64,000 bases of DNA from a virus (Duplodnaviria > Heunggongvirae > Uroviricota > Caudoviricetes): the IMG/VR virus record IMGVR_UViG_2740892229_000011, one strand, 5' to 3'. Below the pieces are notes generated by a model that did no database searches, was not told where the DNA came from, and saw only the letters and a list, made by a program, of their open reading frames with translations. The first letter of the stretch is position 1; each line of letters opens with the position of its first letter. Made by a program: the position numbers and the translations under genes. Of the stretch, positions 2,469-56,365 are shown piece after piece.

Positions 2469-2511
2469 CTAATACTAGAAAACAATTTGTTTAAAAAACA
2501 AAGGAAAGCAC

Positions 2512-23907: not shown

Positions 23908-24032
23908 TCCAATAAACATGGCCTCTATGGCCATGTTTTCTCTTATCCCCTCATATCCCCTATCCTCGAACTCCTTGCCTTATCATCACAATGATATAAT
24001 CAATATAAGATGATAAGTAAAAAGGAAAGCAC

Positions 24033-24464: not shown

Positions 24465-24581
24465 TTTTTGATAGATAATAAGTAAGTACTGATCTATCAT
24501 TTAACAGCTCGAAAGAGCCACGAATGAACGAAAGCCCAACGCGCATAGCGCCATCGGCCAAATCACAACAAGGAGAAACAC

Positions 24582-25610
24582 ATGTCTAAGACATTACTTG
24601 ATTTGCTTAACAAAACTCGTGAAGACATTGCCGCCAAACGTGGTAACAACGTTGATCTGACTCGCTTAAAAGACGGCGTCAACTATATCCGCATCTTCCC
24701 GAATAAAGACGACCCAAACGGTAAGTTCTTCCAGACTTTCGGTATGCACTACGTTAAGTATCAGAACGAGGAAGGTAAAGAAGCAACCAACGCTTATATT
24801 TGTGAGCAACATACTCACGGTCGCGCTTGTCAGCTATGCGAAATGGTGATGGAAGGTCGCGCTCGTCACAAGGGTAACAAAGCAATGGAAGAACGCATCG
24901 GTCAAATGCGTGCCACTCCTCGCTACCTGGTCAACGGCATTCTTTCTGCTCGTGAGGATTTCGCAGATGCTGAGAAATGCCAGTTAATCGAGCTGCCGTC
25001 TACTGTATTCGATGATATCTGCAAAGCAATCACCGAAGACATCGCTGATGATATCGGCAATCCACTGAGCAAAGAGGAAGGCTACGCATTCCTGATTAAA
25101 CGTACTGGCTCTGGTCGCGATACCAAATATGACGTCTCGCCTAAGCGTAAAGTCTACAAAGGCGATATCGAAGATAAATTCTGGAACACCCAGCATGATC
25201 TGATCGCATACGCAAATCAGGCTGATGAAACTCGTCTTCTGTCGACAGTTCGCACTATGGGTCGTCTGATTGGCATCGCTGCACCAACTGCCGCAGCATC
25301 TGCACCAGCAATATCCTCAACCGCGAAAACATCGGCTGCGGCACTACCTGGATTTGGCTCTGTCACTGGTCATACAGAAGGAGCGACGGCTGTAGCAACC
25401 GCGCACACACCGGCTTCTGAACCAACCAGTCTGGTTGATGAAGAAATCCTCCGTGCCGTTGAAACTGAATTTAAACCAGAGGCAAGTTCCGCTGCCGTTG
25501 CCGTATCAGTCAAAGAGTCTGAAGCAGTCGCAGCGACATCTGTAGCAACCGCATCTGCGACGGAAGATGAAGGTCTGGATGACCTACTGAGAGAGCTGGA
25601 CTCTCTGTAA
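24582..25610 (+). CDS. T4 gp32-like single-stranded DNA-binding protein
   Basis: His/Cys zinc motif (H..C..C-x2-C in HYVKYQ..YICEQHTHGRACQLCE), N-terminal resemblance to gp32 (YIRIFPNKDDPNGKFF), acidic C-terminal tail. Confidence 0.55.
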   Translation: MSKTLLDLLNKTREDIAAKRGNNVDLTRLKDGVNYIRIFPNKDDPNGKFFQTFGMHYVKYQNEEGKEATNAYICEQHTHGRACQLCEMVMEGRARHKGNKAMEERIGQMRATPRYLVNGILSAREDFADAEKCQLIELPSTVFDDICKAITEDIADDIGNPLSKEEGYAFLIKRTGSGRDTKYDVSPKRKVYKGDIEDKFWNTQHDLIAYANQADETRLLSTVRTMGRLIGIAAPTAAASAPAISSTAKTSAAALPGFGSVTGHTEGATAVATAHTPASEPTSLVDEEILRAVETEFKPEASSAAVAVSVKESEAVAATSVATASATEDEGLDDLLRELDSL

Positions 25611-25626
25611 TCCCATTACGTGACCA

Positions 25627-25656
25627 GTAAGGCGTCTACGGACGCCTTACTTTTTG
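25627..25656 (+). terminator. Intrinsic terminator (AGGCGTC-N4-GACGCCT + T-run); one of three near-identical copies
   Basis: taaggcgtctacggacgccttacttttt directly after the SSB stop; copies at 29228-29255 and 30366-30392. Confidence 0.6.
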
Positions 25657-25670
25657 GAAGGAATGTACCG

Positions 25671-26615
25671 GTGAATTATCTCTTCGTAGATGGCAATAGC
25701 CTGGGTTATTACCACCAACAATCTGACAAATTGCACAACGGCGAAATGGAAGTACAGGCTGCTTTCGGCTTTGTTAAGAACGTCCGTCGTTATGCCTCCA
25801 TCCTCCATGCCCGACCTATGATTCTTTGGGATGGATTTAGTGACAAGCGTCGCGACTTTTACCCGGACTACAAAGCAAATCGCGACGACGATCCTGATAT
25901 GAAAAAGATGAAGGAAGGCTTTGCTATCCAGAAGCCATACATCCTCAAAATGATGACCGCGCTTGGAGTTACCCAACTCATTGCAAAAGATGCAGAAGCG
26001 GATGATCTGGCCGGGCTGCTGGTATCCCGCATGGCACCGCAGCCAACCGTTGAACACATCTATCTGTTAACAGGCGATAGCGACTGGCTTCAGTTAGTTC
26101 GTGAAAACGTAAGCTGGGTAAGCCTGCGTGAAGACGCCAAAAACAAGCAGGTTAATTTTGAGCAATTTGCGGAGCTGACAGGATTCGCCACGCCTCGCGC
26201 ATTTTTGGAAGCAAAAGCATTACAAGGCGATAACTCGGACAACATTAGCGGTGTTGGTGGCATTGGTGCTGGCGGTGCGAAAGAGCTGCTGCATGAATGG
26301 GGAAGTGTCGCAACGATGGTACGCGGCATCAACGACGGCTCAATCGTGGTTAATAAAGGGCGTCATAAGACCGCCTTCAACAAACTAGCGAAGAATGCCT
26401 TCAACGAGAAAACAGGCTGTCGAATGCTCGAAGCGTTCAAGAGAAACATCACGCTAATGAACCTGATTGAGACGAAGTTTCCGCCTACCGAAATCGAAAC
26501 AATCAAAGGCAATCGTGACGTGAAAGCATTCGAGCAACTGTGCTACGAGCTGAATTTCCGTTCGTTCCTTGAAGACCTTGAAGTGTTTGTTCTTCCATTC
26601 GAAAGGTATTGCTAA
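25671..26615 (+). CDS. 5'-3' exonuclease / flap endonuclease (FEN, T4 RNase H / Pol I 5'-exo family)
   Basis: Motifs LFVDGNSLGYY, ILWDG, EADDLAGLL, LLTGDSDWLQL, H3TH GVGGIGAGGAKELL; start set at GTG after the terminator (track ORF begins 25620). Confidence 0.75.
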   Translation: MNYLFVDGNSLGYYHQQSDKLHNGEMEVQAAFGFVKNVRRYASILHARPMILWDGFSDKRRDFYPDYKANRDDDPDMKKMKEGFAIQKPYILKMMTALGVTQLIAKDAEADDLAGLLVSRMAPQPTVEHIYLLTGDSDWLQLVRENVSWVSLREDAKNKQVNFEQFAELTGFATPRAFLEAKALQGDNSDNISGVGGIGAGGAKELLHEWGSVATMVRGINDGSIVVNKGRHKTAFNKLAKNAFNEKTGCRMLEAFKRNITLMNLIETKFPPTEIETIKGNRDVKAFEQLCYELNFRSFLEDLEVFVLPFERYC

Positions 26616-26881
26616 TGCTTAAATCGATTATCAATGGCGCTACAACCACCCCTGCCCAACTGGCAAAAGAGATTGTCTTTTATCACGGTGAGTACGCTGT
26701 CATCGCACTGCCGTCAATTCTAGGCGCTGCCGGAATGAAAGCGACAGATCGCGAGTTTGGATTAGTCAGCGAGCAGGTCGTAAAAATCCTCGCTCGTGTA
26801 TCCAGACTCCTTAACCACGATGCGATTGTATTCGATGAATCCGCCGCTTTAAAACGAATCAACGAAACAAAAGGAGCCTGA
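26609..26881 (+). CDS. hypothetical protein
   Basis: 90-aa ORF between the FEN and RecA genes. Confidence 0.4.
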   Translation: MLMLKSIINGATTTPAQLAKEIVFYHGEYAVIALPSILGAAGMKATDREFGLVSEQVVKILARVSRLLNHDAIVFDESAALKRINETKGA

Positions 26882-26883
26882 TC

Positions 26884-29223
26884 ATGGCAAAAGGAAAATC
26901 CGCACTGGCACTTGCTCTGAAAAAGAAAATCGGTAGCAACGACGAAATTCAGAAAGTAACTCATTGGATTGATACAGGCTTTCCACCGTTAAACAAAGCT
27001 ATTTCTGGTCGTTACGATGGCGGCTTCCCATGTGGTCGTATCGTCGAAGTATTCGGTCCTCCAAGTGCAGGGAAATGTGTTACCGCAGACACCATGCTGC
27101 TGACGGAGCGTGGAATGGTAACAGTGAAAGAGTTGTTTGAGATTGAAGGGTACAAAGCGACATGCACTACTCGCGATGTAGAGCATAACGTTGGACTCAT
27201 CAATGAAAATGGCGTGATAGAGAAGACCTCACACCTGACATGGAACAACCGTCGCAAATTCAAGCGTATTAAGCTGGCATCAGGCGGTTATATCGAGGCT
27301 ACGTTCCGTCACCCAATCCGTGTGGTTGACGACTTAGGTAATGTCGTCTGGCGACATGCTGAAAAAATCAGTGTAGGCGACACGATTCCTTCAATGGTTG
27401 GCACACATCAATTCGGCGATCAGCACCTGGATGCCAATATCGCAAAACTGATGGGCTATTTAATTGCTGACGGATACGTGGCCTCTGAAAATTCAGTGAA
27501 TTTTTCTAACACAGATCCTTTCATCAAGGATGAGTACTACCGCCTCATTTCGCTGGTATCAGACAAGATGCCAGTTACGAGAAAACATAACGGCTCGGAA
27601 GACCATGTGCTGTTTAGCAAAGAGGTGCGTTCGCTGCTTTTTAAAGAATATGGTCTGGAGTATGAGAAAGCTGCTGGCAAGCAGGTTCCGTTGAGTGTGC
27701 GTCGCGCCAATAGCGAGGCTCAAATTGCATTCCTTCGCGGCTACTTTGAGCTGGAATGCCACGTCAATGATGGTCGCTGCATTGAGGTTGTGAGCGCGAG
27801 TGGGCTGCTGCTACAGCAAATTCGCCTCATGCTCCTGAATCTGGGGATTACGTCAACTATCTCTGAAAAACACGTCGCGGGTTATGAAAATACATATTAC
27901 CGGCTGTCATTCAGTGGCTCTAATTACGACCTTTTTCTGTCAACGATTGGTTTCGAATCTCCGGCACGTTTATCAGTGGCAACCAAACGGGACATTGGTT
28001 TTGACCGCACTTACTCAGGCTATGTTCCGCACATCAGCGGCTTAGTGAAATCACTCTACGAGTCGCTCACCAAGACCACCCGTGAAGACTACGCTCTGGT
28101 AGACCACGTTATTGGCCGCGGCGATCGTGTCGGAATAGACAAACTGCGAGAAATCTATGTCTCCTTCATTGGCAGAAAGAATCGTTTTAACGAGCATCTG
28201 TTTGCACAACTGGCAGCGGTAATTGGCTCTAACTTGTTCTACGACGAAGTCGTGGCTATTGAGGAAGGTGAAGCACCAACGTTCGACGTAGCGATGCCGG
28301 AAACACACTCTTTCTGGTCTAACGGGATTATCAGCCACAACACATTCCTTGCAACAGCAGCGATGATCTCCGCTCAAAAACAAGATGGTCTGGCGGTATT
28401 CCTCGATCATGAAAACAGTTTTGACGTTGGCCTGGCTGTAGCCAATGGCCTGAACGCAGATGAGGATGACGGTCAGTGGGTATACAAGCAGCCAGATACC
28501 TTCGAAGACTCTGTAGAGTTGATCGGCACAATACTTAAATTGGTTCGTGATGAAGAGCTTATCCCCGAATCAGCACCTATCTGTATCGTGGCTGACTCAC
28601 TTGCGTCTATGGTTCCGAACTCCAAAGCCGAGAAGTTCGAAAAGATGGCTGAAGGCACTGCCAAAGACAAAGATCAGCTAAACATGAACGACAATACGGC
28701 ACTGGCTCGTGCGACAAGTGCGAACTTCCCTACTCTGGCTTTGTGGGCACGCAAATACAACGCCTGCATCATCTTCTTGAATCAGGTTCGCACAAAAATC
28801 GGTGTAATGTTTGGCGACCCTACTACGTCGCCAGGTGGAGATTCACCGAAGTTCTACGCTTCTGTACGTATCCGTCTTGGTGCATCGGTGATGAAGGATG
28901 GTAAAGAGAAGATCGGCCAGGACGTAGGCGCAGAATGCATCAAAAACAAAGTTGCACCACCGTATGGCAAATGCACCTGGAAATTCTACTTCGATCCTAC
29001 TCGTGGCCTCGACGTTATCGAATCGCTCGTCGAGTACATGCTGGAAGAAGGATACCTGCCAAAGAACGCCAGCGGGCGAGTTGAAATTGGTGACAAGAAA
29101 TACACCAAATCGCAGATCGTCGAGATGTATCGGGAGAAGCCACTGGCTGAAATCATTGCGGCTTTGCAGGCAATCGACGACCGAAGAGCAAAAGACAACC
29201 CCACCGAGTCAGTAGAAGAGTAA
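26884..29223 (+). CDS. RecA-like recombinase interrupted by an intein in the P-loop
   Basis: Extein joins to GPPSAGK|TFLATAAM ... FLNQVRTKIGVMFGDPTTSPGGDSPKFYASVRIRLG, closely matching RecA core motifs; extein about 357 aa. Confidence 0.85.
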   Translation: MAKGKSALALALKKKIGSNDEIQKVTHWIDTGFPPLNKAISGRYDGGFPCGRIVEVFGPPSAGKCVTADTMLLTERGMVTVKELFEIEGYKATCTTRDVEHNVGLINENGVIEKTSHLTWNNRRKFKRIKLASGGYIEATFRHPIRVVDDLGNVVWRHAEKISVGDTIPSMVGTHQFGDQHLDANIAKLMGYLIADGYVASENSVNFSNTDPFIKDEYYRLISLVSDKMPVTRKHNGSEDHVLFSKEVRSLLFKEYGLEYEKAAGKQVPLSVRRANSEAQIAFLRGYFELECHVNDGRCIEVVSASGLLLQQIRLMLLNLGITSTISEKHVAGYENTYYRLSFSGSNYDLFLSTIGFESPARLSVATKRDIGFDRTYSGYVPHISGLVKSLYESLTKTTREDYALVDHVIGRGDRVGIDKLREIYVSFIGRKNRFNEHLFAQLAAVIGSNLFYDEVVAIEEGEAPTFDVAMPETHSFWSNGIISHNTFLATAAMISAQKQDGLAVFLDHENSFDVGLAVANGLNADEDDGQWVYKQPDTFEDSVELIGTILKLVRDEELIPESAPICIVADSLASMVPNSKAEKFEKMAEGTAKDKDQLNMNDNTALARATSANFPTLALWARKYNACIIFLNQVRTKIGVMFGDPTTSPGGDSPKFYASVRIRLGASVMKDGKEKIGQDVGAECIKNKVAPPYGKCTWKFYFDPTRGLDVIESLVEYMLEEGYLPKNASGRVEIGDKKYTKSQIVEMYREKPLAEIIAALQAIDDRRAKDNPTESVEE
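27076..28341 (+). other. Intein (422 aa) with LAGLIDADG homing-endonuclease domain inside the RecA Walker A motif
   Basis: Starts with Cys (CVTADTML), block B TxxH (ATFRHPIRV), LAGLIDADG motifs (LMGYLIADGYV, FLRGYFELECHV), ends SHN followed by Thr +1. Confidence 0.8.
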
Positions 29224-32004: not shown

Positions 32005-32541
32005 CGTCACCGCTGACAGCATACACAATCAACTACCGCTGATAGCATATCGAGAGTCTATCTCACCGCTCACAGCATACTTTACTCGATTTTTTACCGC
32101 TGACAGCATACTTAAGACATTGCATGAATAATGTGTACCGGTATGGGTATAACCAGAACAAAATTACCGCTGGCAGCATACGAAGGTCTGACATATACCA
32201 TTAATTACCGCTGATAGCATATCCAAACAAAAATTCCTCAATAAAACACCGCTGACAGCATACGTTCTATCAGGGAGCAGCAGGCAATAAATGCCTTTCA
32301 CTACAAGCAATCAGCGCAATAGCAATAGAATGTTAGTGAGCGCAAACCTATATGGAATGCACTCTTCGAGGTTAGTAACCACTGGGGAGGTATGACAGAG
32401 CATTGAGTGGTGATAGATGATTTACCGCCCACAGCATACGTTCATCTCACTATACCGCTGGTAGCATATATTTAACCGTTTACAGCATACTTTTCAGAAA
32501 AATAGCCGCTGATAGCATACATTTCACCGCTGACAGCATAT
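32005..32541. repeat. Iteron array (about 12 copies of 17-bp ACCGCTGACAGCATA[CT]), incA-like copy-control locus downstream of rep
   Basis: Direct and inverted copies at irregular 10-40 bp spacing, with a 150-bp repeat-free gap at 32270-32420. Confidence 0.8.
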
Positions 32542-33635
32542 CAAAGCAGTTTGAGACTATTGGAAAGGATCTCAATCATCTTGATATTTTCAGGCGTCAA
32601 ATTCTGCGAAAGTTCGGTTATCTTGTTGATAATGTTCTGTTTGGCATCAATTTCCCCAGCTTTCTCATCTAGTTTTTTGGGTTCGATGTCTTCAGGTTTT
32701 GGCGGTGCGACTTTGAGTTTTGGATTGCGGCTGTGAATCTGGATATAGATCGACCGCCCTCGCTTAATCTCGCTGTATTCGAGATAACCCAAATCTTGGA
32801 GAGCTTTTAAGCCGTTGCGTATAGTCTGATTCTGCGAGCTGACATTCCTGCTACTCAAATTGAGTCGCGCACGCAATCGAGCAAGCGATACCGGCGCAGG
32901 CTTGGTTGGAAGACTTTCGATGAAGGTGTACAGAGCCTGTGCTGTTTCTTTGCGTGGTAGCTTATTGATAACCTTTAACTGCAAAAGAACCTTATGGTCA
33001 AAGCGATATAGTTCGGCCAGCTTCGGTTCTGCATAGAACACCACCGTATCTTTCTGCTCGTTGTAGTCCACGCTATTGATGAGGTGCACCATCAGAAGCG
33101 AGATCTTGTTAGAGCCGTCGACGTTCTTTTCTTCATACGTTCTCTGGAAAGACAGAGTTGTACGCATGATCTTCAAAAGACTGTTTGTAAGCCGGTCGCG
33201 GAGTGTTTTGCGGATCTGTGACGATGGATAGCCACAAAACTTCGCAAATTTCGTGATGCTTAACTCGACACGACCGTTAGGTTCGCCGTATTCTGCCAGC
33301 GAACGCACAACGCCCACCCACGTTTTGAAATCATGATCCATGTCGAGACGAGGACCGGTTATCTTGATATCGGAATAGCCTTCAGAACGGGCTACTTCGA
33401 GCTGAACAAGCTCCTTTGAAGCATCGATCTCATTTGGCTTGTTACGCTTGCTGTATTTTGTCCCCTTGAGCGTGGGCACGAACAATCCCAGCCGCATCAA
33501 CGCAATTGGTTGGACTGTATTGTTGCTATTAGGGACAAGTTCCCCTGTGTACAATTCAAGGGAACCTTCTTCAAAGTTGTCGAGATTATCTTCTACTTCT
33601 TTGTTATTTTTACCTTTTTTATTTTTTGTGGACAT
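32541..33635 (-). CDS. Iteron-binding replication initiator (RepA/Rep_3-like)
   Basis: Gene flanked on both sides by iterons; start set at internal ATG with SD AAAGG (MSTKNKKGKNNK...); motif IALMRLGLFVPT resembles Rep_3-family initiators. Confidence 0.65.
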   Translation of the reverse strand: MSTKNKKGKNNKEVEDNLDNFEEGSLELYTGELVPNSNNTVQPIALMRLGLFVPTLKGTKYSKRNKPNEIDASKELVQLEVARSEGYSDIKITGPRLDMDHDFKTWVGVVRSLAEYGEPNGRVELSITKFAKFCGYPSSQIRKTLRDRLTNSLLKIMRTTLSFQRTYEEKNVDGSNKISLLMVHLINSVDYNEQKDTVVFYAEPKLAELYRFDHKVLLQLKVINKLPRKETAQALYTFIESLPTKPAPVSLARLRARLNLSSRNVSSQNQTIRNGLKALQDLGYLEYSEIKRGRSIYIQIHSRNPKLKVAPPKPEDIEPKKLDEKAGEIDAKQNIINKITELSQNLTPENIKMIEILSNSLKLL

Positions 33636-33654
33636 GTGGACACCTTTGTCATTC

Positions 33655-33757
33655 AACCGCTGACAGCATACTTGATTTGCCGCTGACAGAATACCAAAAA
33701 CAGTTGGCAGCATACGGTGAACCGCTGACAGACTATCAATTACCGCTGACAGCATAC
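33655..33757. repeat. Upstream iteron set (about 4 copies) overlapping the rep promoter region (incC-like)
   Basis: aaccgctgacagcatac, tgccgctgacagaatac, gaaccgctgacagactatc, taccgctgacagcatac. Confidence 0.75.
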
Positions 33758-33794: not shown

Positions 33795-33870
33795 AGCGAT
33801 CGGGGATCTTATTTGATCTATACAAGGATCTATCTATGGATCTCTTTATTAGGATCTATCCTGTGGATAT
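33795..33870. promoter_or_regulatory. Origin core: cluster of six GATC (Dam) sites plus DnaA-box-like ATATCCACA
   Basis: Six GATC within about 60 bp, followed by tcctgtggatat (reverse complement ATATCCACAGGA, 8/9 match to TTATCCACA); adjacent to the upstream iterons, as in the P1 oriR layout. Confidence 0.6.
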
Positions 33871-46846: not shown

Positions 46847-47266
46847 ATGTTTAGTGAAATGTTGCTTGAAGATGAACTGGATCGGAAAACAACAGAGGCT
46901 TTGATTCGTGTAGCGGACGAACATTCCCGGTCGCTTATGAGCGATCGAGAGGCTCGTCTGGCTATTCGTGCCATATTCGAAACTGCGCAGGGGCTTGTTG
47001 GCGCACAAGTAGGTGAAGCCATTAACATCGCCATGTCTCAGTTCAGTGAAGACAGTAAAAAGCCTCTGTTTCCTATGCATTTGATGCTGGCTGGTGGCAC
47101 GGTGCTTTATATCTCTGTTTGTCTGGATAGCAACCAAATCAATATTCTCAACACTGCGTCAGGTAAGTGGAAAGATCCGATTGTCTGTGAAACCAGTGAA
47201 GAAACTTTGAAAAAAGCGGCTCAATTTGTACGTAGCGCACTACTTAAGGGCGCTAAGAAGTTGTAA
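46847..47266 (+). CDS. hypothetical protein
   Basis: 139-aa ORF with SD AAGGA. Confidence 0.45.
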   Translation: MFSEMLLEDELDRKTTEALIRVADEHSRSLMSDREARLAIRAIFETAQGLVGAQVGEAINIAMSQFSEDSKKPLFPMHLMLAGGTVLYISVCLDSNQINILNTASGKWKDPIVCETSEETLKKAAQFVRSALLKGAKKL

Positions 47267-47275
47267 GGAGTTCTG

Positions 47276-47833
47276 ATGACAACGATTGTTGCAGGCATCG
47301 ATATCGAGTCTACGGGACTGGATTTCCTTGCTGGTCATAAAATTATTGAAATCGCAATTACCCGCTATGAACTGGAGACACAGAGACATATTGATAGTCT
47401 GGAGATGCGTTTTAACCCTCGCAGAAACATAGATCCGAAAGCTCAAGCCGTTCATGGCATTTCATTAGAACAGCTCGCAGCTGAACCTTTGTTGTCAAAT
47501 CATGCCAGCGAAATTGGCGCTTATATGGGGGCATGTAGTGCGTGGATTGCTCATAACGGCGAAGCGTTTGATATACCATTTATTCGACACGAGTTTTCAG
47601 GGTATGGAGTAAGACTGCCAGACGTTCCCGTTATAGATACTATGTTATCGGGATTGTGGGCCACAGAAGACGGTAAACGTCCTCGCCTTGAAGAATTGGC
47701 CTTCTCTCTTGGCTTTATATACGATCATGCCAAAGCACATAGTGCCTTATATGACACAAACTTAATGATGCAATGCTTCTTTAAGGCACGTAATAAATAC
47801 GGATTTTTTAAATTACCCTCTGAAATTGTGTAA
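47276..47833 (+). CDS. DnaQ-like 3'-5' exonuclease (DEDDh family)
   Basis: Exo I GIDIESTG, Exo II HNGEAFDIPFI, Exo III HSALYDTNL. Confidence 0.7.
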   Translation: MTTIVAGIDIESTGLDFLAGHKIIEIAITRYELETQRHIDSLEMRFNPRRNIDPKAQAVHGISLEQLAAEPLLSNHASEIGAYMGACSAWIAHNGEAFDIPFIRHEFSGYGVRLPDVPVIDTMLSGLWATEDGKRPRLEELAFSLGFIYDHAKAHSALYDTNLMMQCFFKARNKYGFFKLPSEIV

Positions 47834-47993
47834 AACAAAAGCCTGCTTTAAAGAGAGTTTGAAGCAGGCTTTCTTTTAAAGAACAGTCGCCTTTCAATCA
47901 TTTCCTGCCTGTATTTAATACTTTTCCGCCTGATAGGTTTAGTCAAAATGTAGCCATCGAAACGCAAATGCAACTAAACAGAAGGAGACTTAC

Positions 47994-48803
47994 ATGAGTT
48001 CGGTTGAAAATGTAATGACAAATGATGATCTGGATGAGCTGACAGCCATGTTGCAATCACTTGATGAACCAGTAAAAAAAGCTGCACAGGTTGAAAATAC
48101 TGATGATATTGACGATCTGCTTCTCGGCCTCGATGCTGGCGTAGCCATGAGTTCTGATGATGTTGCCGAAGAACTGTTCAATGAAGAAAAAGCAGGTGAT
48201 TTCAGCTCCGCTTTAAATGAGTTGGAGTTAGCTCATGAGCCTATAAACGTAATTAAGGCTGAAAGTGTTGAATCTGCCGAAAACGAGCCAGAACAATTGG
48301 GATTTATTGAGGTTGAAGAGTGTGTTGAGGTTAATGATGAATTAAAAGTTCAACAGTCAAATGATAGCAATACAAATAAAATAGCTCGTACTGCAAGAGG
48401 TCCTCGTTTTACTTTAAGTGATAAAGATGATTTGTTTTTCAATAAAGCAGGCTTAGAAAAAGATATTTTCTTAGACGCTTACGAAAACGCGCCTGTCAAA
48501 GCAAAGGATAAGATATTAAACCTTCTTAATTGGTTTAGCGGAGGTCCAGATATTAGTGTTTACACGGTAATTTCCATGAGACACCTTCTCACAGAAAAGA
48601 AGGCTACAAGTAATAGTATTAAGATTGCTTTAATGAGCAATCCAGAAAAACCGTATCCGCTTAACACTGCGTCAACTCAGGCTGGGCAAATGATGGCTGT
48701 ATTTCCAGCTACAGGAATTGCTGTTAGAGACGGTGGAAATCTAACATTGAACGAAGAATCACCGATCGTTAAGAAGTTTGTCGCGGAGTACACTATTGGA
48801 TGA
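47994..48803 (+). CDS. hypothetical protein with strongly acidic N-terminal half
   Basis: About 40% GC (lower than neighbours); N-terminal 120 aa rich in D/E; lies directly upstream of the Dam-like MTase gene. Confidence 0.45.
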   Translation: MSSVENVMTNDDLDELTAMLQSLDEPVKKAAQVENTDDIDDLLLGLDAGVAMSSDDVAEELFNEEKAGDFSSALNELELAHEPINVIKAESVESAENEPEQLGFIEVEECVEVNDELKVQQSNDSNTNKIARTARGPRFTLSDKDDLFFNKAGLEKDIFLDAYENAPVKAKDKILNLLNWFSGGPDISVYTVISMRHLLTEKKATSNSIKIALMSNPEKPYPLNTASTQAGQMMAVFPATGIAVRDGGNLTLNEESPIVKKFVAEYTIG

Positions 48804-48985
48804 CGTTCCCCTACTGAAAATAAAGCCCATAGAGAGCTTTATAGTGCTGGGTAAGCTAACCCATACCCAGCACCACAAAAACGCGCCAGAGAGCTTCTTG
48901 TTCGCATTTCTGGCGCGTTTTATTTTATTGCCATACATAAAATCAAATGCAAAAATAGGTAATCACTTACCTACCGAGAAAGAAG

Positions 48986-49579
48986 ATGATTGCAGCCGAA
49001 AAAATCAAACAGCGAAAGCGCGACAACTCTCTTCGTGACCTCTGGAGAACACCTGATTGGCTGTTTTCTGCCATTCAACGTTATCTTGGAGTGACATTTG
49101 ATGTTGACGTTGCCTGCAACAAGGACAATGCAAAGCTGCCTATTTTCATAGGCGTTGAGCGCGATGCTTTGAAATCTGAATGGGGGCAGCCAGGTACAAT
49201 TGCCTTCCTCAATCCACCCTACTCCAAAATCTCCCCCTGGATTGATGCGGCTATACGTGAGCAGGCTCGCGGAGTTACAACAGTGATGCTAATTCCTCAA
49301 TCCCTCGATACAAAGTGGTATGAGCGTGCAACAGAGTGTGCGAATGAGACGATTATTCTGTCTGGTGGCCGCGTAGCGTTTGTCGAGCCTGACGTCAATT
49401 TGGGTCAGGTAGAAGTAAACATCAACCCCGGTGGCAGTATGCTCGTTGTTTTTCGAGGATTCTGTCAGGACGCTGGGCACTCTATAAGCAAGATCCCTTT
49501 GGACGTCATGAAAAGTCTGGGAGGGTATGATCCTGCGAATGTGATCAGGAAAAAAAGACCATCAAAGAAGGCTGCTTAG
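48986..49579 (+). CDS. Phage-type DNA N6-adenine methyltransferase (Dam-like)
   Basis: FLNPPYSKI (NPPY catalytic motif), about 197 aa, phage Dam-like architecture. Confidence 0.75.
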   Translation: MIAAEKIKQRKRDNSLRDLWRTPDWLFSAIQRYLGVTFDVDVACNKDNAKLPIFIGVERDALKSEWGQPGTIAFLNPPYSKISPWIDAAIREQARGVTTVMLIPQSLDTKWYERATECANETIILSGGRVAFVEPDVNLGQVEVNINPGGSMLVVFRGFCQDAGHSISKIPLDVMKSLGGYDPANVIRKKRPSKKAA

Positions 49580-49600
49580 TTTGTTCTGGCGTCTGTAATT

Positions 49601-49657
49601 AGCCTGCTTCTGTATATAAATAACTACATATTAATTATTAATATACGGAAGCAGGCT
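49601..49657 (+). terminator. Stem-loop B, near-identical to stem-loop A
   Basis: Arms agcctgcttctgtatat / atatacggaagcaggct; the single mismatch is a G-U wobble in the plus-strand RNA; 22 nt after the MTase stop. Confidence 0.45.
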
Positions 49658-49763
49658 GTTTTATATCAGAGACTCCCAGACCTGAACACCACTACAGAAT
49701 CCACTAGAACCCCTTCCCAGACGCTTTAAAATCGATTTTATGAACCACTTTAAGGAAACCAAC

Positions 49764-49994
49764 ATGTCATACCCGACTAATGTCGTTGCGCTCGTAGAGA
49801 GCGATTTTCTGGCCCAGGCTCGTGAAATGATGAAAGATCGTGAGCAGGCTTTCAACTTGTACGAGTGGGCAATTAAGTGCTTGCATCTTGGCGAGCATCG
49901 CGAACTTGTTGAACAGCTTTTAGGTGAGTTGATCAATGAGGTGTTTGCCTTGAATGTTCAACTACATGGTCGAGAAAATAATCAATCAAAATGA
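49764..49994 (+). CDS. hypothetical small protein
   Basis: Start chosen at the ATG preceded by AAGGAAACCAACATG (track start 49740). Confidence 0.35.
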   Translation: MSYPTNVVALVESDFLAQAREMMKDREQAFNLYEWAIKCLHLGEHRELVEQLLGELINEVFALNVQLHGRENNQSK

Positions 49995-50577
49995 TAGATA
50001 AGTACAAACTATTCATAAAGTGAATTGTAAGTGCTAAGATCTGATAGTTTCCAGTCGTAGACTGGAGGCTCGACCTGATGGGTGGGGGTAAGCGTCACTG
50101 GCGTCAGGTTTAAAAAAGCTCACTACCAGCGTAGAACCGGTGCCGTATAGGTGTCGGGGAAGGGGGAACCAAAGTGAGCGGAGACAAGGGTCACTTTATG
50201 ATTGTCGAGTCTGGGGTGTTTCGAGAGGTTGAATCCAGTACTCCCCTTCATAAAGTGTGGGAAGATCTCGGTTCTGGGGTGCTGTCATCCATAACTTCCC
50301 AAGTCTAAGCTGGCAGTAGACTTAGACCATAGCTTTTCAGGTTATGAAACGACCAGGTTGGTGAGGAATTTTATACTCACCTCCCTGGGAGAGTATTACC
50401 TGAAAAGACAACCTCTCACTTCGTTCGAGGTGAACTTCACTCACTTCGTTCGTTCAGTTCAGGTTTATAAAAACCTGTTCTGGGAAGTAATTTGTTTATT
50501 TTAATAATTATTAACACGCACGCGTGTGCGCACGCGCGAGGAAAAAAATCGGCGCGGCGCTTGATTCAGGAGTTTAT

Positions 50578-51168
50578 ATGACGACGAAGACACCAGCCCG
50601 ATCGCAAGCAAAAACTCGCAAAAAAGCCAAAAACAAAAATTCTCCCCGCACCAATCCCACAACGCCTGTCGTAGAGTTCAATCCCCAGCTTAAAACCGTG
50701 AAAATCTTCAGTGATGGCTCTTGCCTTAAAAATCCGGGTGGCCCGGGCGGTTACGGTATCGTTCTTCAGTATCGTGGAGAGGAACGCGAGTTCTCAGATG
50801 GTTTTCATAGCACCACCAATAACCGCATGGAGATGATGGGGGCACTTATCGGGCTGGAGCGTTTGAAATATCCATGCAACGTTATTTTGCACTCTGATAG
50901 CCAGTATCTGAAAAACGGCATGACACAGTGGATGAAATGGTGGAAACGCAATGGATGGATGACTTCTGACAAAAAACCGGTAAAGAATGTTGATCTGTGG
51001 AAGCGTCTGGATGAGGCCGCAAGTCGACATAATGTTCGCTGGAAGTGGGTTAAAGGTCACGCCGGGCATCGTGAAAATGAAATATGTGATCGACTCGCGA
51101 AGATCGCAGCTTTTTCAGCAGCAGATATGCCTCACAAGAAAGATATTGGTTTTGTTTATAACAAGTAG
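50578..51168 (+). CDS. rnhA: Ribonuclease H (RnhA type) with short N-terminal basic extension
   Basis: Near-complete match to recalled E. coli RNase HI motifs ([47 protein letters not shown]); start at ATG with SD AGGAG (track 50524). Confidence 0.85.
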
Positions 51169-51316
51169 TAAGTAAGTGTTTACCTATCATTTTAAATCAT
51201 GTATCTTATCGGCGTCAGGATGACAATGTGTCGGTAAGACACAGTTCCAGGATGGAACGAGAAAGGCGGCTGGCAATCGCCAGCCGCAACTCTTTCTGAC
51301 ACTGGATGGGGTCCAC

Positions 51317-51811
51317 ATGGCACGTCAAACCTATTTCACTTCTGCAACTAAACGTCCTCGTTCTTTACGTCAAATTTTGGCCGAATTATTTAGCGGTCGT
51401 GTTATGTCACGTCTTGATGAACTAGAGACTACCGTTCGGTTGCTGAATGAACGTTTAGATAATCAAGCGTCAGTTGTTGCGAACGTGGGGGCGATTGTTG
51501 CCTCTGGTTCTTCACGCGAAGCGAAAAATGCACGGCCTTTAGTGAAGGAGAAAAACAACAAGGACAGTTCGAATGGAAAATTTTCAAAGAAAGAGGCTGA
51601 AACCAATGGCCTACGTTCTCATTATAGTTTCACTGGCGACGGTAGCCGTTCCAGCCGGTCAGTGCCTTTTGATGCCGGATTCATCCATCACCACACCTTC
51701 GTCGACGACAATTACCACCACTCCAGTGGAGCGTCCTGTCACTCTGGATGGGATGGCGGTGGATGCGATACCTCAAGTTCATCCAGTTACTCAGGATCAT
51801 GCTGTGACTAA
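51317..51811 (+). CDS. hypothetical protein
   Basis: 164-aa ORF; low-complexity Ser/Gly/His-rich C-terminus. Confidence 0.3.
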   Translation: MARQTYFTSATKRPRSLRQILAELFSGRVMSRLDELETTVRLLNERLDNQASVVANVGAIVASGSSREAKNARPLVKEKNNKDSSNGKFSKKEAETNGLRSHYSFTGDGSRSSRSVPFDAGFIHHHTFVDDNYHHSSGASCHSGWDGGGCDTSSSSSYSGSCCD

Positions 51812-51820
51812 GGCGGTTGT

Positions 51821-52009
51821 ATGAACTGGTTTTCAAATCACTTTGGAAAAATTTGGCTGGCAATTCTTGCCCTCATGGCCGCCGGTTGGGTATCGAACAT
51901 TATAAAACTTGTTTGCTCTGGCGATCTCCAGTTTCAGGCTGGTATGACCTTGGCTCGTGTAGTTGGGATTTTTATTTTTCCAGTCGGTTCGGTACTTGGT
52001 TATTTCTGA
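51821..52009 (+). CDS. small membrane protein
   Basis: 62 aa with two hydrophobic segments. Confidence 0.3.
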   Translation: MNWFSNHFGKIWLAILALMAAGWVSNIIKLVCSGDLQFQAGMTLARVVGIFIFPVGSVLGYF

Positions 52010-52102
52010 CGGTTGTTAGTGCATATGCATTGACCGTCTTTGCGTAAGCAATTTATTTAACTAGAAAACAACTTGTTTTGACAAATAACAAAAGGAAAAC
52101 AC

Positions 52103-52528
52103 ATGTTAGGTTTCTTCAAAAAGAAAACTCGTAAAGCAGTTATCGAAGTCAAAAAAATGGAGAACCGTGATGCGGTTGAGGCCACCGTGTGGGGCGCGTA
52201 CATGATCTCCTATGCCGACGGCACATGTGACGCAAAAGAAATTGCCATTCTTGAGAAGACAATTGCAGCTCTGCCTGCGTTTTCTCCGTTTGCTGGTGAA
52301 ATTGCCCAAATGAGCGCCAATATCCGTGCTCGTTACGAAGCGTCCCCTCGTTCTGCTAATGCACAGGCTATTCGTGAGCTGTCTGATATTGCGGGTACTC
52401 CAGAGGCGGTCGATGTTCTGTGTCTGTGCCTTGATATTGCCGATCAGGATGGCATTGGTGAACAAGAAGAGCAGGCACTGAAAAAGATCGCCCAGGCGCT
52501 TCAGTTGTCACTGGATGCTTATCTCTAA
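52103..52528 (+). CDS. TerB-like domain protein (putative)
   Basis: 141 aa; helical with an acidic patch (DIADQDGIGEQEEQALKKIA) resembling TerB-family proteins; motif-1 palindrome and conserved TIR upstream. Confidence 0.35.
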   Translation: MLGFFKKKTRKAVIEVKKMENRDAVEATVWGAYMISYADGTCDAKEIAILEKTIAALPAFSPFAGEIAQMSANIRARYEASPRSANAQAIRELSDIAGTPEAVDVLCLCLDIADQDGIGEQEEQALKKIAQALQLSLDAYL

Positions 52529-52825
52529 TGCTTGAGAGATTCCGGCTTGTGATCGTCATTGCTCTTCTGGTGATGGCGGTGTTGGTGGATTTTACGGGAA
52601 AGATGATGTCTGTCATTTCTGATGGCGTCCTCATTGGTTTGGCGATCTACTTCGCTTATCCGTTAGTTCGTAAAGCAAAGTGTTAATGACAAGGGCCATT
52701 TGGCCCTTGTGTTTCGTTGACCGAAATAGAGAGTTTGCACCTTTACGTTTAGCTTGCTCCCCTCATATGCCACATCACAATAAAGCCAATAAGAAAACAA
52801 CTTGTTTAAGCATTAAGGAAAACAC

Positions 52826-53392
52826 ATGTGCGAGAAATGCAAAGCAATAGCTGATGAACAAAACGCCCTATTCGAAGAAATGGATGCTAATGAACTTGTC
52901 AAAATGTTAGCCATTCTTCGAGGAATAGAAGACGTTTCCATATTTGAGAGACTGTTTACAATACTTAATTTTAATTCCACCTTTGAAGAGCCAACTCAGA
53001 TTGTAGCTTTGGCACACCATTTCGGTGTTCATTACCTTGCTGAAAAAGAGAGAGTTGATAAGTTGCAAGCGACTTTGGATATGGTGAGCGAGACTCAAGG
53101 AACTCATGACGGTAACAAAAGTGAGACGATTATTGCCAGCAAAGATCGTGAAATTGCCGGGCTTAAATCCTCTCTAATGATGTTGATGTCTGCAATTAAC
53201 CTTATGTCTTCTAAAGCAGGTTATAAAATGCCATCACTAAACAGCGACGATCCGATGGCCGTTCGCCAGCTTTTAGGTGCAATGGCCGACCAGCTCGACG
53301 ACACAAAGAGTCGCCTTGAAGACATGATGCGGGAGCTCACGCATCGCCATGACTTGAATAAGCAGCCGCACAAAACGCAATACGCACTCTAA
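52826..53392 (+). CDS. hypothetical protein
   Basis: 188-aa ORF with motif-1 palindrome and conserved TIR upstream. Confidence 0.45.
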   Translation: MCEKCKAIADEQNALFEEMDANELVKMLAILRGIEDVSIFERLFTILNFNSTFEEPTQIVALAHHFGVHYLAEKERVDKLQATLDMVSETQGTHDGNKSETIIASKDREIAGLKSSLMMLMSAINLMSSKAGYKMPSLNSDDPMAVRQLLGAMADQLDDTKSRLEDMMRELTHRHDLNKQPHKTQYAL

Positions 53393-53533
53393 TACTGCAC
53401 CAGTCGACAGGGGGCGAAAGCCCCCATTTTTACGCCTTTAATCTGCTGTAACGCCTATGAATACAGCTTTTATGCCTTTTCAAGTTTGCGATAATTACAC
53501 CAATCAGAAAACAAATTATTTAATGGTGTAATT

Positions 53534-55222
53534 ATGAATACAGCCCTTTCCATCATCGACGATGCCAGCTCAAACACGGCTATCGACTATCGTCAGGAAA
53601 TGAATGTCATCCACGAAATCGTGGCCGAGTGCGAGAAAGAGATCGCCTTCATGTATCAGGTACACGACTTCGTTTATGGCGACGAACGCCACAACATGAT
53701 TAATCGCCTGCTGAGACTAAACCATCGACCAGATGAAGATCGCTCGCGTTTAAATCGAGGTTGGTTGGATAAAGTCGATCTGGAATGGGTGAAACAGAAT
53801 ATTTGGGCCGAGTACTGGAGGAAGGTCACGGACATGACTAACGTTTTGCTGATCATGCCAGCTTCCCGTCGAGATGAGTGGCGCGAGCAGTTTATAGAGG
53901 GCAAACAGGAAGTCATCAAAACTGACAGAACCGGCTACCAGATGAAGGTTAAAGAGTTCGTTGGTGTACCGGAGTTCAAAGCAGAAACGGTCATACCCAC
54001 GATGCTTAATTTGCTGAATGACAGGCACAAATATCTCTCTGAGCGCGTGTATGGCTTGTTTAAGGCGCTGAGTCCTGCGCACAAGACAAATAAGACAAAC
54101 GGTTTCAGCGAGCGTCTGATAATCGCTGACTGCATTTCTGATTTCTGGCGGGACAGCGTTAGCGTGAACTATCGCAAAGAGGACTACATCGACGATCTGC
54201 GTGTCTTGCTTCATTTCTTCGCGCACAAAGAATTTATTACCATCAACCGCACTGCTGAGGTGCTATCAGCTGCGTATCGGGCAAACGACTGCCAGACCGG
54301 TGACTGGATGAACGTCGATGGAAATCTGATGCGCGTGAAGATGTTCAAGAACGGCAACGTTCACTTTGAAATACATCCTGACGTGGCCTGGAAGTTGAAT
54401 GAGGTGCTGGCTTACAGTATGCCTGCTGCAATCCCCGCGCCATGCCGAACTGCGCCAAAAACACGGGCACCAAAGCAGTTCGGGTTAATCCAGAAGACGA
54501 TCTCCATGCCGGTTCGCACTGCGCTTCGTGACGGGCGATTGAGCAAAGACAAAGGCGTATGGTACTTCTCTGATTCAGCTCTCCAGAAGTCGCAGGTGGA
54601 AGAGCTTGAGCGCACACTGAGCTTCATTGGCGGCGTGCAGGAGAAAAAGCACTGGCAGTTCCCGTATGAGATCGGCCATACGCTAAATACGATTGTGGCT
54701 ACCGGATTAATACCGGATACAAAATCACACCAGTTCTACCCTACCCCACGCTTGATTGCTGAGTACGTTGCCAGAGCCACTGAATTGAAGCCTGGTGAGA
54801 AGCTGCTGGAGCCTCAAGCCGGACGTGGGGATCTTCTGGCCTATATTAACGCCGATCTGGAAGATGTTACCTGTATAGAAATCGCACCTCTCTTCGCTGA
54901 TATCCTGCGTGGAAAAGGGTATACGAACACGATTTGCTGCGACTTCATAAAGTGGTCTGAGGACAACGCAGGTTATCAGTTCGACAAAATCGTTATGAAC
55001 CCGCCGTACTCGCTTGGTCGTCATAGAGAGCACACGATGGCTGCGCTGGGGCATCTGAAAGTCGGCGGGCGTCTTGTAGCAGTATTGCCGGGCACTGCAC
55101 CAATACTGGACTGGATGACGATGGATAATTACGTTTATGCCAGAGGGAAGTCGTTTACCAACGAGTTTGAAGACACAGGGATCACAGTCAGCGTATACGT
55201 TTTCAAACGCGTTAAAAGATAG
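53534..55222 (+). CDS. DNA methyltransferase (N6-adenine/N4-cytosine class) with large N-terminal domain of unknown function
   Basis: C-terminal SAM-MTase motifs LEPQAGRGDL (motif I) and IVMNPPYS (motif IV); about 380-aa N-terminal region without recognisable motifs. Confidence 0.65.
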   Translation: MNTALSIIDDASSNTAIDYRQEMNVIHEIVAECEKEIAFMYQVHDFVYGDERHNMINRLLRLNHRPDEDRSRLNRGWLDKVDLEWVKQNIWAEYWRKVTDMTNVLLIMPASRRDEWREQFIEGKQEVIKTDRTGYQMKVKEFVGVPEFKAETVIPTMLNLLNDRHKYLSERVYGLFKALSPAHKTNKTNGFSERLIIADCISDFWRDSVSVNYRKEDYIDDLRVLLHFFAHKEFITINRTAEVLSAAYRANDCQTGDWMNVDGNLMRVKMFKNGNVHFEIHPDVAWKLNEVLAYSMPAAIPAPCRTAPKTRAPKQFGLIQKTISMPVRTALRDGRLSKDKGVWYFSDSALQKSQVEELERTLSFIGGVQEKKHWQFPYEIGHTLNTIVATGLIPDTKSHQFYPTPRLIAEYVARATELKPGEKLLEPQAGRGDLLAYINADLEDVTCIEIAPLFADILRGKGYTNTICCDFIKWSEDNAGYQFDKIVMNPPYSLGRHREHTMAALGHLKVGGRLVAVLPGTAPILDWMTMDNYVYARGKSFTNEFEDTGITVSVYVFKRVKR

Positions 55223-55280
55223 GTAAATACTTACTTAATTTGTGTAAGAATGTAGTTACTAAACGATAAGAGAAAAACAC

Positions 55281-55985
55281 ATGAACAACCTCCAGTTAGA
55301 GCATTTTAACGTCACAGGCCATTCTGATTTTCCTTTCAAGTTTACATTGAAAGGTTATGCAGAGGATGCGGTAGGCCAGATCATTATTGATAAAGGCATC
55401 GTTAAGTTTGAGGGGAATTTTGATGAATCCGCGAAAACATTCATAGACTTCGTTGCCAAACGTTGGAGCGAGCAATGGAAAGACCTGGAAAAGCGCGCTA
55501 GTGAGTTTGATCGGTTCATGGATGCAATGGATACAGCAAAAGAGGCTCTTGCTGCCGGTACTCCGTTAGATCTGGAGTCACTTTTCAACGGCGAAGTGGC
55601 CTCTGCGATGTTCGCCACCATGTTCGCGGGTGAGTTCGTCCGCAGCGGTGCCAAAAACTACCTTGAGCTGGATTACAACGTCCCTGCAATTGGCGATTTC
55701 GTCGTTACCATCCAACGCAAAGAAGGTAAGACGCCAGGTGAACGCGTCGCAGAGCTTGAGGCCGTTGTGGATCAGCGTAACGGAGAGTGTGACCGTTTGG
55801 TCAACGAGCTTCATGCACTTCGGGAAGAAAGAATATGTGCGGGTAGCAATACACGTAATGCAGCGGATATCTACTTCCAGTTAGTTGAGGAATGCCAGAT
55901 TCCACCAGGTGGCTCTCTTGTCGATTACGTCAGACATTTAATGGCGGAAGTTAACTCCAGCCATAAAGATGGTGAGGTGCGCTGA
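55281..55985 (+). CDS. hypothetical protein
   Basis: 234-aa ORF with conserved TIR; stop overlaps the next start. Confidence 0.5.
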   Translation: MNNLQLEHFNVTGHSDFPFKFTLKGYAEDAVGQIIIDKGIVKFEGNFDESAKTFIDFVAKRWSEQWKDLEKRASEFDRFMDAMDTAKEALAAGTPLDLESLFNGEVASAMFATMFAGEFVRSGAKNYLELDYNVPAIGDFVVTIQRKEGKTPGERVAELEAVVDQRNGECDRLVNELHALREERICAGSNTRNAADIYFQLVEECQIPPGGSLVDYVRHLMAEVNSSHKDGEVR

Positions 55986-56365
55986 TGTTCGGCATTGACG
56001 CACAGCGTATAGCCGCTTTTGCAAAAAGCCCTCTTGATAATCCCTTGTCTCGTAGTGAGCAAATGGAGCTGGCAAGGCTTTTTCTTCACATTCAAAAACA
56101 GGCAGACATTTTCAATAACATGCCTAATCAACCTATTCTGGATGGTCACATCCAGATGGTCATTAACAGTCATGAGAAAGGCTGGGCTGCAATCGTCCCC
56201 TGCACAATTACATACAAGTTGGCGAAAGAGGTTCAAGAGTTTCGAAAAGCCAGTGTCGAATCGGAGTCTACCAAAGCCGCAATAAACACTCTTATTCGCA
56301 TGGGGTTCACATGGACCGGTGGAGCCTACTGGCAAGCACCTCACCCCATTTTATCCGGCAATTAG
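55985..56365 (+). CDS. hypothetical protein
   Basis: 126-aa ORF translationally coupled to the upstream gene. Confidence 0.45.
   Translation: MFGIDAQRIAAFAKSPLDNPLSRSEQMELARLFLHIQKQADIFNNMPNQPILDGHIQMVINSHEKGWAAIVPCTITYKLAKEVQEFRKASVESESTKAAINTLIRMGFTWTGGAYWQAPHPILSGN

Follow-up and report, generated by a model that had tools for sequence, protein, structure and literature searches.

The question raised by positions 47,994 to 55,222 of the Caudoviricetes record IMGVR_UViG_2740892229_000011 is whether three of its genes, coding respectively for a protein with a strongly acidic N-terminal half, a Dam-like N6-adenine methyltransferase and a second, larger methyltransferase, constitute a dedicated system for countering host restriction. 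An earlier interpretation of the whole 64,000-nucleotide stretch of DNA (hereinafter the window), made from its letters alone, had proposed just that, with the acidic protein as a possible DNA mimic acting alongside the two enzymes (the sequence-only reading). Our analysis points to a different interpretation, to which we assign a probability of roughly 0.6: instead of one anti-restriction module, the interval comprises three genes that are each transcribed separately and lie in the part of an SSU5-like phage-plasmid devoted to replication and nucleotide metabolism.

The open reading frames (ORFs) of all three genes were verified on the + strand: the acidic protein gene at 47994-48803 (269 aa), the Dam-like gene (dam) at 48986..49579 (197 aa) and the large methyltransferase gene at 53534-55222 (562 aa). 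The element is 97.6% identical to the Escherichia phage Cyrano, and a megablast search with positions 47000-56000 recovered four phage records at 98-99% query coverage and 97-98% identity (Escherichia phages Cyrano, CMS-2020a and PhiR41_1), alongside the Salmonella phage SSU5 at 82.6% and Klebsiella phage-plasmids at 78-81% identity. In Cyrano the three genes are labeled “Hypothetical protein”, “Adenine methyltransferase” and “DUF4942 domain-containing protein”, and in SSU5 as a “hypothetical protein” and two “DNA methyltransferase” genes; our search of the literature found no paper describing these SSU5 genes as anti-restriction factors.

The compositional bias of the first protein is as pronounced as the sequence-only reading had it. 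Residues 1-110 contain 31 D/E versus 4 K/R (net charge -27, pI ~4) and the N-terminal half (aa 1-135; 47994..48398, +) 35 versus 8, while residues 136-269 are neutral (15 versus 15). The lower GC content of the gene is likewise borne out (39.1% versus 45.9% for the window). Its GC content at third codon positions (GC3) is 0.31 in both halves and, hence, the low GC is not an artefact of the amino acid composition; the corresponding value is 0.37 in the exonuclease gene that lies upstream and 0.47-0.59 in dam, rnhA, the large methyltransferase gene, thyA, folA, nrdA and dnaE. In the structural model, the N-terminal half shows a few helices, modelled at low confidence, and then a polyanionic linker without ordered structure, with predicted local distance difference test (pLDDT) scores of 30-60 for the acidic region overall and 30-39 for residues 81-131. 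Residues 140-269, in contrast, score above 90 and belong to a conserved C-terminal domain (aa 138-269; 48405..48800, +) predicted to adopt a winged helix-turn-helix fold, wherein a three-helix bundle is followed by a beta-hairpin wing; structure comparisons place it close to the dimeric repressors ArsR, MarR, Fur and MecI. An alignment of 21 homologues displays the same division: a short conserved N-terminal stretch (~residues 10-47), whose conservation is confined to the clade, an acidic linker that varies in both length and sequence, and a strongly conserved C-terminal block of 135 residues, whose helices bear invariant polar residues (K, N, T, S and Q). The protein is thus predicted to be a winged helix with a disordered polyanionic tail. 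It has no match in Pfam, NCBIfam or PADLOC; a phmmer search of the PDB yielded nothing below E = 0.14, and a search of the viral structures in BFVD yielded a single unnamed match (E = 5e-4) and none that is annotated. The claim that it is a DNA mimic finds no support in these results.

The only family matches of the acidic protein are phrog_5235 and phrog_3932, both of unknown function, and its distant relatives likewise match the same two PHROGs and no Pfam family. A profile of the winged-helix domain, run against 1.84 billion representatives, recovered 647 clusters at E <= 1e-3; almost all of these are 220-300 aa long and carry the domain at the extreme C-terminus. For the region N-terminal to it, the medians over 134 family members are 119 aa in length and -18 in net charge, with 85% at -10 or below. 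Judging from these sequences, what is conserved across the wider family is the acidity and composition of the N-terminal region and not its sequence. A DDLDxLxAML-like N-terminal motif that seemed to recur by eye was dropped, as the corresponding regular expression matched 27/130 members and 13/130 shuffled versions, and a profile of residues 8-48 recovered 3 of 143 representatives at E <= 0.01, i.e., there is no family-wide N-terminal sequence motif. One homologue (P0002, 292 aa) diverges fully past ~residue 205, within the winged-helix domain, in a frameshift-like manner; a pseudogene or an assembly error is the probable cause.

Gene neighborhoods were compared next. Upstream of the acidic gene lies a gene for a DnaQ-like 3′-5′ exonuclease (47276..47833, +; 185 aa; PF00929 RNase_T, E = 1.1e-20), and in a sample of 80 SSU5-like viral loci this order is seen in all 77 informative ones; the large methyltransferase gene is found within 7 kb in 52 of 62 such loci. 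Beyond the SSU5 clade, a Raoultella element retains the exonuclease and the acidic gene in this order and has no Dam. In an Aeromonas phage-plasmid, the Pseudomonas phage Nican01, the Stenotrophomonas phage BUCTxx99 and the Rhizobium phage RHph_X66, a family member is encoded on the same strand 0-4 small ORFs downstream of a gene for a DnaQ-like/Pol III epsilon exonuclease, with no annotated methyltransferase near it in any of these four contexts. These distant loci were drawn from a collection of annotated phages; among IMG/VR loci, the distant members formed a diverse alignment without a usable conserved stretch, and queries with four single representatives yielded no confirmed relatives. 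The linkage of the exonuclease and the acidic gene therefore spans five divergent phage lineages, and dam follows in the SSU5 clade alone. Hence, the stable genomic partner of the acidic gene is the exonuclease gene and not dam. Every isolated phage in which the family was seen has a siphovirus-sized genome of 103-122 kb, with the exception of one 84-kb Klebsiella record. As a separate observation, the epsilon-like exonuclease of the window, at just 185 aa, apparently lacks a C-terminal tail.

The signals between the genes also separate them. A hairpin with a 15-bp stem followed by a T-run (47838..47879, +; inverted repeat I5; -20.9 kcal/mol, z = -3.5), which none of 200 shuffles matched in folding, resembles a terminator between the exonuclease and acidic genes. 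While the acidic gene does precede dam as had been described, the two do not abut: dam starts 182 bp downstream, and this spacer contains three consecutive hairpins (48820..48930, +; -48.3 kcal/mol, z = -7.4), the last of which (48878-48921, then a T-run) is like an intrinsic terminator. A comparison of 48 distinct SSU5-like spacers shows the structure to be conserved, one of them (L056) carrying a compensatory change. It is followed by a promoter-like TTGCCA-17-TGcAAAAAT found in a promoter scan and then a perfect palindrome, TAGGTAA-N4-TTACCTA, that lies 30 bp before the dam start codon (48928..48973, +) and shows at least 90% column conservation in the 48 spacers. This palindrome belongs to an 18-bp family (TAGGTAAGTACTTACCTA; TAGGTAAGT|ACTTACCTA), which, counting sites with up to 3 mismatches, has 8 distinct sites in the window against 0.04 expected (16236, 24479, 29265, 34725, 39409, 48956, 51169 and 55220). 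All fall in intergenic DNA, at a distance of 30-150 bp from the + strand genes that they precede, including the sbcD-like gene, nrdA and dam, making the palindrome a candidate operator of a replication-module regulon. Directly 3′ of dam is a long hairpin (49601..49657, +; inverted repeat I2, with 26-nt arms that are 88% complementary and a 5-nt loop).

The large methyltransferase gene is preceded by signals of its own, namely a GC-rich terminator-like hairpin (GGGGGCGAAAGCCCCC then ATTTTT; 53410..53432, +, with the hairpin at 53410-53425) and the motif AGAAAACAAATTATTT (53506..53521, +), which lies 28 bp before its start codon and is unlike the dam palindrome. The general form of this motif, AGAAAACAAnTTGTTT, has 8 distinct sites in the window against 0.53 expected (2477, 16734, 30410, 41848, 52063, 52792, 53506 and, on the - strand, 56417). 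Seven of the eight are situated 28-41 bp upstream of a + strand ATG (those of the cobT-like, nrdB, terB-like and large methyltransferase genes, among others) and the eighth, at 56417, is inverted and falls in the gap ahead of the gene at 56485; the motif could be a promoter-proximal or 5′-untranslated region control element. An Rfam scan of 47000-56000 gave no match. With hairpins between them and differing motifs upstream, the acidic, dam and large methyltransferase genes are separate, differently controlled units. The proposal of a three-gene anti-restriction set is at odds with these boundaries and with the way in which the acidic gene tracks the exonuclease gene outside the SSU5 clade.

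The identification of the second protein as a phage-type N6-adenine methyltransferase with an NPPY motif was confirmed by matches to PF05869 (E = 1.7e-37; 129 bits versus a threshold of 28.1), TIGR01712 (112.5 bits versus a cut-off of 97.05) and phrog_111, with the catalytic motif present in the translation as FLNPPYS. A sequence search of the PDB returned nothing significant for it. Homologues are found in ~2000 phage records. Its identity is 39% with the dam of phage VT2-Sakai and 28-32% with the enzymes of several ~50-kb coliphages and of Klebsiella phages. Plasmid records with the gene number 777, of which 760 are non-mobilizable; nearly all of those listed are ~105-120 kb, the size of phage-plasmids. 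The VT2-Sakai enzyme, M.EcoVT2Dam, is reported to target GATC (PMC6602927), and by this relationship the Dam-like enzyme of the window is likely to be GATC-specific too. The ORFs flanking the two methyltransferases code for hypothetical proteins, RNase H, TerB-like and Ead/Ea22-like proteins, and none displays a nuclease domain in Pfam or PHROGs; with such neighbors the Dam-like enzyme and, by the same domain searches, the large one are orphans without an adjacent restriction partner.

The large enzyme starts 3.95 kb past the end of dam, consistent with the second methyltransferase placed 4 kb downstream by the sequence-only reading; what had been described as its uncharacterised N-terminal domain of 380 aa is, in contrast, in part a named domain, albeit one without a function. 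This N-terminal region of ~390 aa (53534..54715, +) includes a DUF4942 domain at residues 140-295 (nt 53951-54418; PF13708, 74 bits versus a gathering threshold of 25) and is followed by the gamma-class amino-methyltransferase catalytic domain (54716..55222, +). The order of the catalytic motifs is that of the gamma class, with motif I (LEPQAGRGD, core EPQAGRGD) before motif IV (MNPPYS, core NPPY) and both aligning to M.TaqI, and in the predicted structure the catalytic domain shows the fold similarity expected of this class. An AlphaFold model computed from 20 homologues has a mean pLDDT of 82, with the N-terminal region mostly at 80-90; structure comparison gave no fold assignment for these ~390 residues. 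They are fused to the methyltransferase domain in all full-length homologues found, a search for DUF4942 architectures recovered only methyltransferase fusions or truncated proteins, and of the 4 papers that the literature search found to mention DUF4942 none is a functional study. We presume that the most likely contribution of the DUF4942 region is to bind DNA or recognize the target.

The relatives of this enzyme are widely distributed on mobile elements. A tblastn search recovered 4570 plasmid records, of which 2987 are conjugative, with full-length relatives of ~30% identity on IncHI2 plasmids, and 213 phage records, with full-length relatives of 31-36% identity from phages of Aeromonas, Vibrio and Pseudomonas. 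In addition, the catalytic domain occurs inside “virion structural” and “DarB-like antirestriction” proteins, with matches to PHROG profiles of 1259-3925 positions, and is 31% identical (E = 3e-14) to a 187-aa methyltransferase encoded between DUF3560 and ssb in an IncF leading region. On the IncHI2 conjugative plasmid pMS8345A (L004, 4351-8635), a full-length DUF4942 methyltransferase (~30% identical) and a canonical Dam-family methyltransferase are encoded 1.8 kb apart; Dam-type and DUF4942-type enzymes thus occur as a pair on an unrelated element too.

The sequence-only reading had further suggested that the Dam-like enzyme may methylate a GATC-rich origin. Such an origin is indeed present, ~15 kb from the interval: a P1-like plasmid origin (33657..33856) with four CCGCTGACAG iterons (33657-33752) and six GATC sites lies upstream of a gene for a Rep3-type RepA (repA; 32541-33755, -), and nine further CCGCTGACAG-type iterons are found downstream of repA (32010-32536). 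The six GATC sites fall within 59 bp (33798-33856), where the window average of 4.4 per kb would predict ~0.26. In phage P1, the function of oriR depends on the adenine methylation of its GATC repeats and cleavage at pac is regulated by methylation; the origin of the window mirrors the layout of oriR/incC and incA of P1. This part of the suggestion is therefore reasonable, although the host Dam would suffice for the same job.

The distribution of short sites in the window, compared with expectations from a maximal-order Markov model of its whole length, also bears on restriction. Many 6-bp palindromic sites are strongly depleted, including those of HindIII, PstI, SacI, SphI, NcoI, XhoI, EcoRI and BamHI: AAGCTT occurs 2 times versus 19.7 expected and CTGCAG 2 versus 16.1; AGCGCT, GCATGC, CCATGG, GGCGCC and GGATCC are absent (6.5-12.8 expected each); and GAGCTC, CTCGAG and GAATTC occur once each (9-12.5 expected). 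CTAG is depleted as well, with an observed-to-expected ratio of 0.39. GATC is retained (283 sites, ratio 0.85), and TCGA and TTCGAA are also undepleted. We infer from this pattern passive avoidance of the rarer 6-bp sites combined with methylation cover for an unavoidable 4-bp site.

Based on these observations, we propose that the Dam-like enzyme is an orphan, probably GATC-specific methyltransferase, expressed from its own promoter with an operator-like palindrome, which would keep the many retained GATC sites fully methylated during fast copying by the element’s own Pol III-type replisome. Such methylation would protect the DNA from GATC-cutting endonucleases and keep the P1-like origin methylated. 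The 562-aa enzyme would be a second orphan adenine methyltransferase of the gamma class that acts on a different motif and may thereby widen the protection against restriction in new hosts. The acidic protein might be a DNA- or replisome-associated accessory or regulatory factor, anchored by its winged helix, with the acidic tail modulating or recruiting a partner that is basic and binds nucleic acid; a role as a dedicated inhibitor of restriction is improbable. Restriction evasion by methylation is, in this scheme, plausible but ordinary: of the layered evasion that had been envisaged, a methylation layer with two genuine orphan enzymes is a reasonable reading, and the layer formed by the acidic protein is not supported.

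Several alternatives have to be weighed against this proposal. We consider it very unlikely that the acidic protein is an Ocr/ArdA-like DNA mimic that forms a layered anti-restriction set with the adjacent Dam-like enzyme and the second methyltransferase. Its net charge of -27 over 110 residues, the acidity maintained throughout the family despite sequence drift, the invariant order of the acidic gene and dam in the SSU5 clade and the avoidance of 6-bp palindromes, as another sign of selection by restriction, speak in favor of such a set. Nevertheless, the acidic segment is predicted to be disordered and is variable in length and sequence and, therefore, would not present a rigid array of charges; the conserved part is instead a winged helix, and the protein matches no family in Pfam, NCBIfam or PADLOC. 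Moreover, the gene is conserved across a whole phage lineage and linked to the exonuclease gene; four other lineages show no methyltransferase annotated in its vicinity and the Raoultella relative has none, and in the window a terminator-like structure and a dissimilar GC3 set it apart from dam. An unlikely, though less remote, possibility is that the winged-helix protein is a transcription regulator of an early or middle replication regulon, which binds as a dimer to the recurrent intergenic palindrome (e.g., TAGGTAAGTACTTACCTA before dam, nrdA and the sbcD-like gene) and employs its acidic tail for contacts with RNA polymerase or for autoregulation. Both the resemblance of its fold to dimeric repressors and the invariant polar residues of its helices accord with this, as do the eight intergenic palindromes, one of which is at the dam promoter just downstream of the acidic gene. 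But nothing ties the protein to the palindrome, the element surely encodes other DNA-binding proteins, the winged-helix domain is not basic, and the palindrome was examined only in SSU5-type DNA. We are somewhat more inclined to entertain, while still doubting, the idea that the methyltransferases serve the element’s own DNA transactions, such as origin firing or sequestration at the GATC cluster, strand marking for mismatch repair during fast replication, packaging control or epigenetic regulation, instead of restriction evasion. The P1-like origin with its clustered GATC sites, the methylation dependence of P1 oriR and pac, and the placement of dam within a replication and nucleotide-metabolism module under an operator-like palindrome common to nrdA and the sbcD-like gene are all in line with it, and the hosts are Dam-positive, which implies that little extra GATC protection would be gained. 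This idea, however, leaves the second methyltransferase unexplained, with its relatives in contexts like plasmid leading regions and in DarB-like proteins, and sits poorly with the Raoultella relative that has no Dam; furthermore, the two roles are compatible with each other.

Certain observations also weigh against the three-unit interpretation that we favor. In the SSU5 clade the order of the acidic gene and dam is fixed in 74 of 74 loci, with a spacer of mostly 186-192 bp (~187), which is compatible with some functional coupling, and the neighborhood of the exonuclease is no proof of a physical or functional link between the two proteins; a terminator-like hairpin lies between their genes. 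Bulk negative charge kept without sequence is what one expects of an electrostatic decoy for nucleic acid, and a loose version of the DNA-mimic reading survives to this extent. The winged-helix domain has a net charge of 0 and its putative recognition helix lacks any basic residue; DNA binding by it is accordingly not assured, with the invariant K, N, T, S and Q residues being no more than suggestive. As for the enzymes, at 39% identity the GATC specificity of the Dam-like protein goes no further than likely, and since all known hosts are already Dam+ a GATC enzyme could be redundant; the best structural match of the large enzyme is the rRNA m6A methyltransferase METTL5, making an RNA substrate for it possible.

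The two methyltransferases add little by themselves, in that orphan Dam-like enzymes of phages are textbook knowledge and annotations of both genes as methyltransferases already exist for SSU5, Cyrano and hundreds of plasmid records. Nevertheless, the DUF4942-fused version is a very widespread, uncharacterised enzyme, found on enterobacterial plasmids and phage-plasmids of clinical relevance that number in the thousands. The gene for the acidic winged-helix protein, of unknown function, is conserved throughout a broad lineage of phages, and its stable pairing with the DnaQ-like exonuclease furnishes a testable hypothesis on phage Pol III-type replication. A bolder conjecture, which we offer as quite unlikely, is that these acidic-tailed proteins (phrog_5235, phrog_3932; ~650 clusters) are a previously unrecognised, lineage-wide component of ~110-kb phages with their own Pol III alpha and epsilon: they might either be accessories that tether or regulate the tail-less epsilon-like exonuclease or the replisome on DNA, or DNA-anchored polyanionic decoys that tie up a nucleoid protein, a defence nuclease or another nucleic-acid-binding protein of the host at the replicating phage genome. 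Correcting the DNA-mimic label would avert the spread of a misleading anti-defence annotation.

The genes upstream of the interval code for an integrase, CobT/CobS-like proteins, a DnaE-like Pol III alpha subunit (20389-23907), a gp32-like single-stranded DNA-binding protein (SSB), a flap endonuclease, an intein-containing RecA, the Rep3-type RepA with its iterons, SbcCD-like proteins, NrdAB, a MazG-like protein, ThyA, DHFR, a kinase-like ATPase and the DnaQ-like exonuclease. Within this complement, 16769-29223 and 47276-47833 together contain a Pol III-type replication set of the element’s own: the DnaE-like alpha (1172 aa), the epsilon-like exonuclease, the gp32-like SSB, the flap endonuclease and a ligase, with a CobT/CobS-like AAA+/VWA pair also encoded in the former region. 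The RecA homologue (26884-29223, +) is split by an intein with a LAGLIDADG homing-endonuclease domain (PF00154, PF14890, PF14528). Between dam and the large methyltransferase gene, 51317-52686 encodes a 164-aa protein whose C-terminal tail is rich in Cys, Ser and His (...SSSSSYSGSCCD), then a small membrane protein and a pair like TciA/TciB of P1 with a TerB domain. In two relatives from the Enterobacter cloacae complex (L007 and L008, 7735-8046), a 103-aa gene with a weak Pfam match to Tad2-like (anti-Thoeris) proteins lies downstream of dam, in the place taken in the window by rnhA and other genes; the stretch 3′ of dam may be a variable accessory or anti-defence slot.

Comparison with known systems places each of the three proteins within a broader setting. 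The Dam-like enzyme is closest to the orphan Dam enzymes of phages (PF05869/TIGR01712), typified by M.EcoVT2Dam of the Stx phage VT2-Sakai and including the T1 and HP1 Dam proteins: it shares with them the profile matches, the NPPY motif, a length of ~200 aa and the absence of a restriction partner. It differs from the VT2-type Dam in its location, the latter being encoded in the lambdoid early region and the former in a replication module, behind an operator-like palindrome of its own. In M.TaqI, M.BseCI and CamA, the target-recognition domain is C-terminal, whereas the large enzyme of the window has ~390 aa, including DUF4942, N-terminal to a catalytic domain that ends at the C-terminus. Over ~120 aa of this catalytic domain it is 30-37% identical to DarB-like or “polyvalent” virion proteins and to the 187-aa class I S-adenosylmethionine-dependent methyltransferase of the IncF leading region (e.g., 33.6% over 119 aa with the DarB-like protein of the Serratia phage Parlo, confined to the methyltransferase domain), and like them it is found on mobile elements in anti-defence contexts. 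However, DarB-like proteins are giant, multidomain and delivered with the DNA; the large enzyme of the window is a stand-alone protein of 562 aa with neither a helicase nor other polyvalent modules, and nothing observed points to its packaging in the virion. The IncF enzyme is encoded in a conjugative leading region, with the large enzyme lying outside any such region.

Another orphan adenine methyltransferase borne by a mobile element, as are both enzymes of the window, is M.EcoGIX of pESBL, a promiscuous, single-strand-specific plasmid enzyme with a proposed anti-restriction role (PMC7736820, PMC4288162). A kinship with it, suggested by the name “YdiA” and the leading-region matches, was rejected, as M.EcoGIX is a beta-class enzyme (PF01555); BLASTP comparisons gave E = 0.69 with the Dam-like protein and E = 0.02, restricted to the NPPY motif, with the large one. 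Turning to the acidic protein, Ocr (T7 gp0.3) and ArdA imitate B-DNA by means of rigid arrays of carboxylates displayed on a compact fold. The acidic protein is like them in its strongly negative net charge and unlike them in that its acidic part is predicted to be disordered, is variable, is tethered to a winged helix and matches no family. A further comparison is with T7 gp2.5, T4 gp32 and the C-termini of bacterial SSBs, which display acidic tails on nucleic-acid-binding proteins. Those are built on an OB fold and the acidic protein on a winged helix with a long (~120 aa) N-terminal tail, yet it shares with them a disordered polyanionic segment joined to a domain of a nucleic-acid-binding type and encoded among genes for replication.

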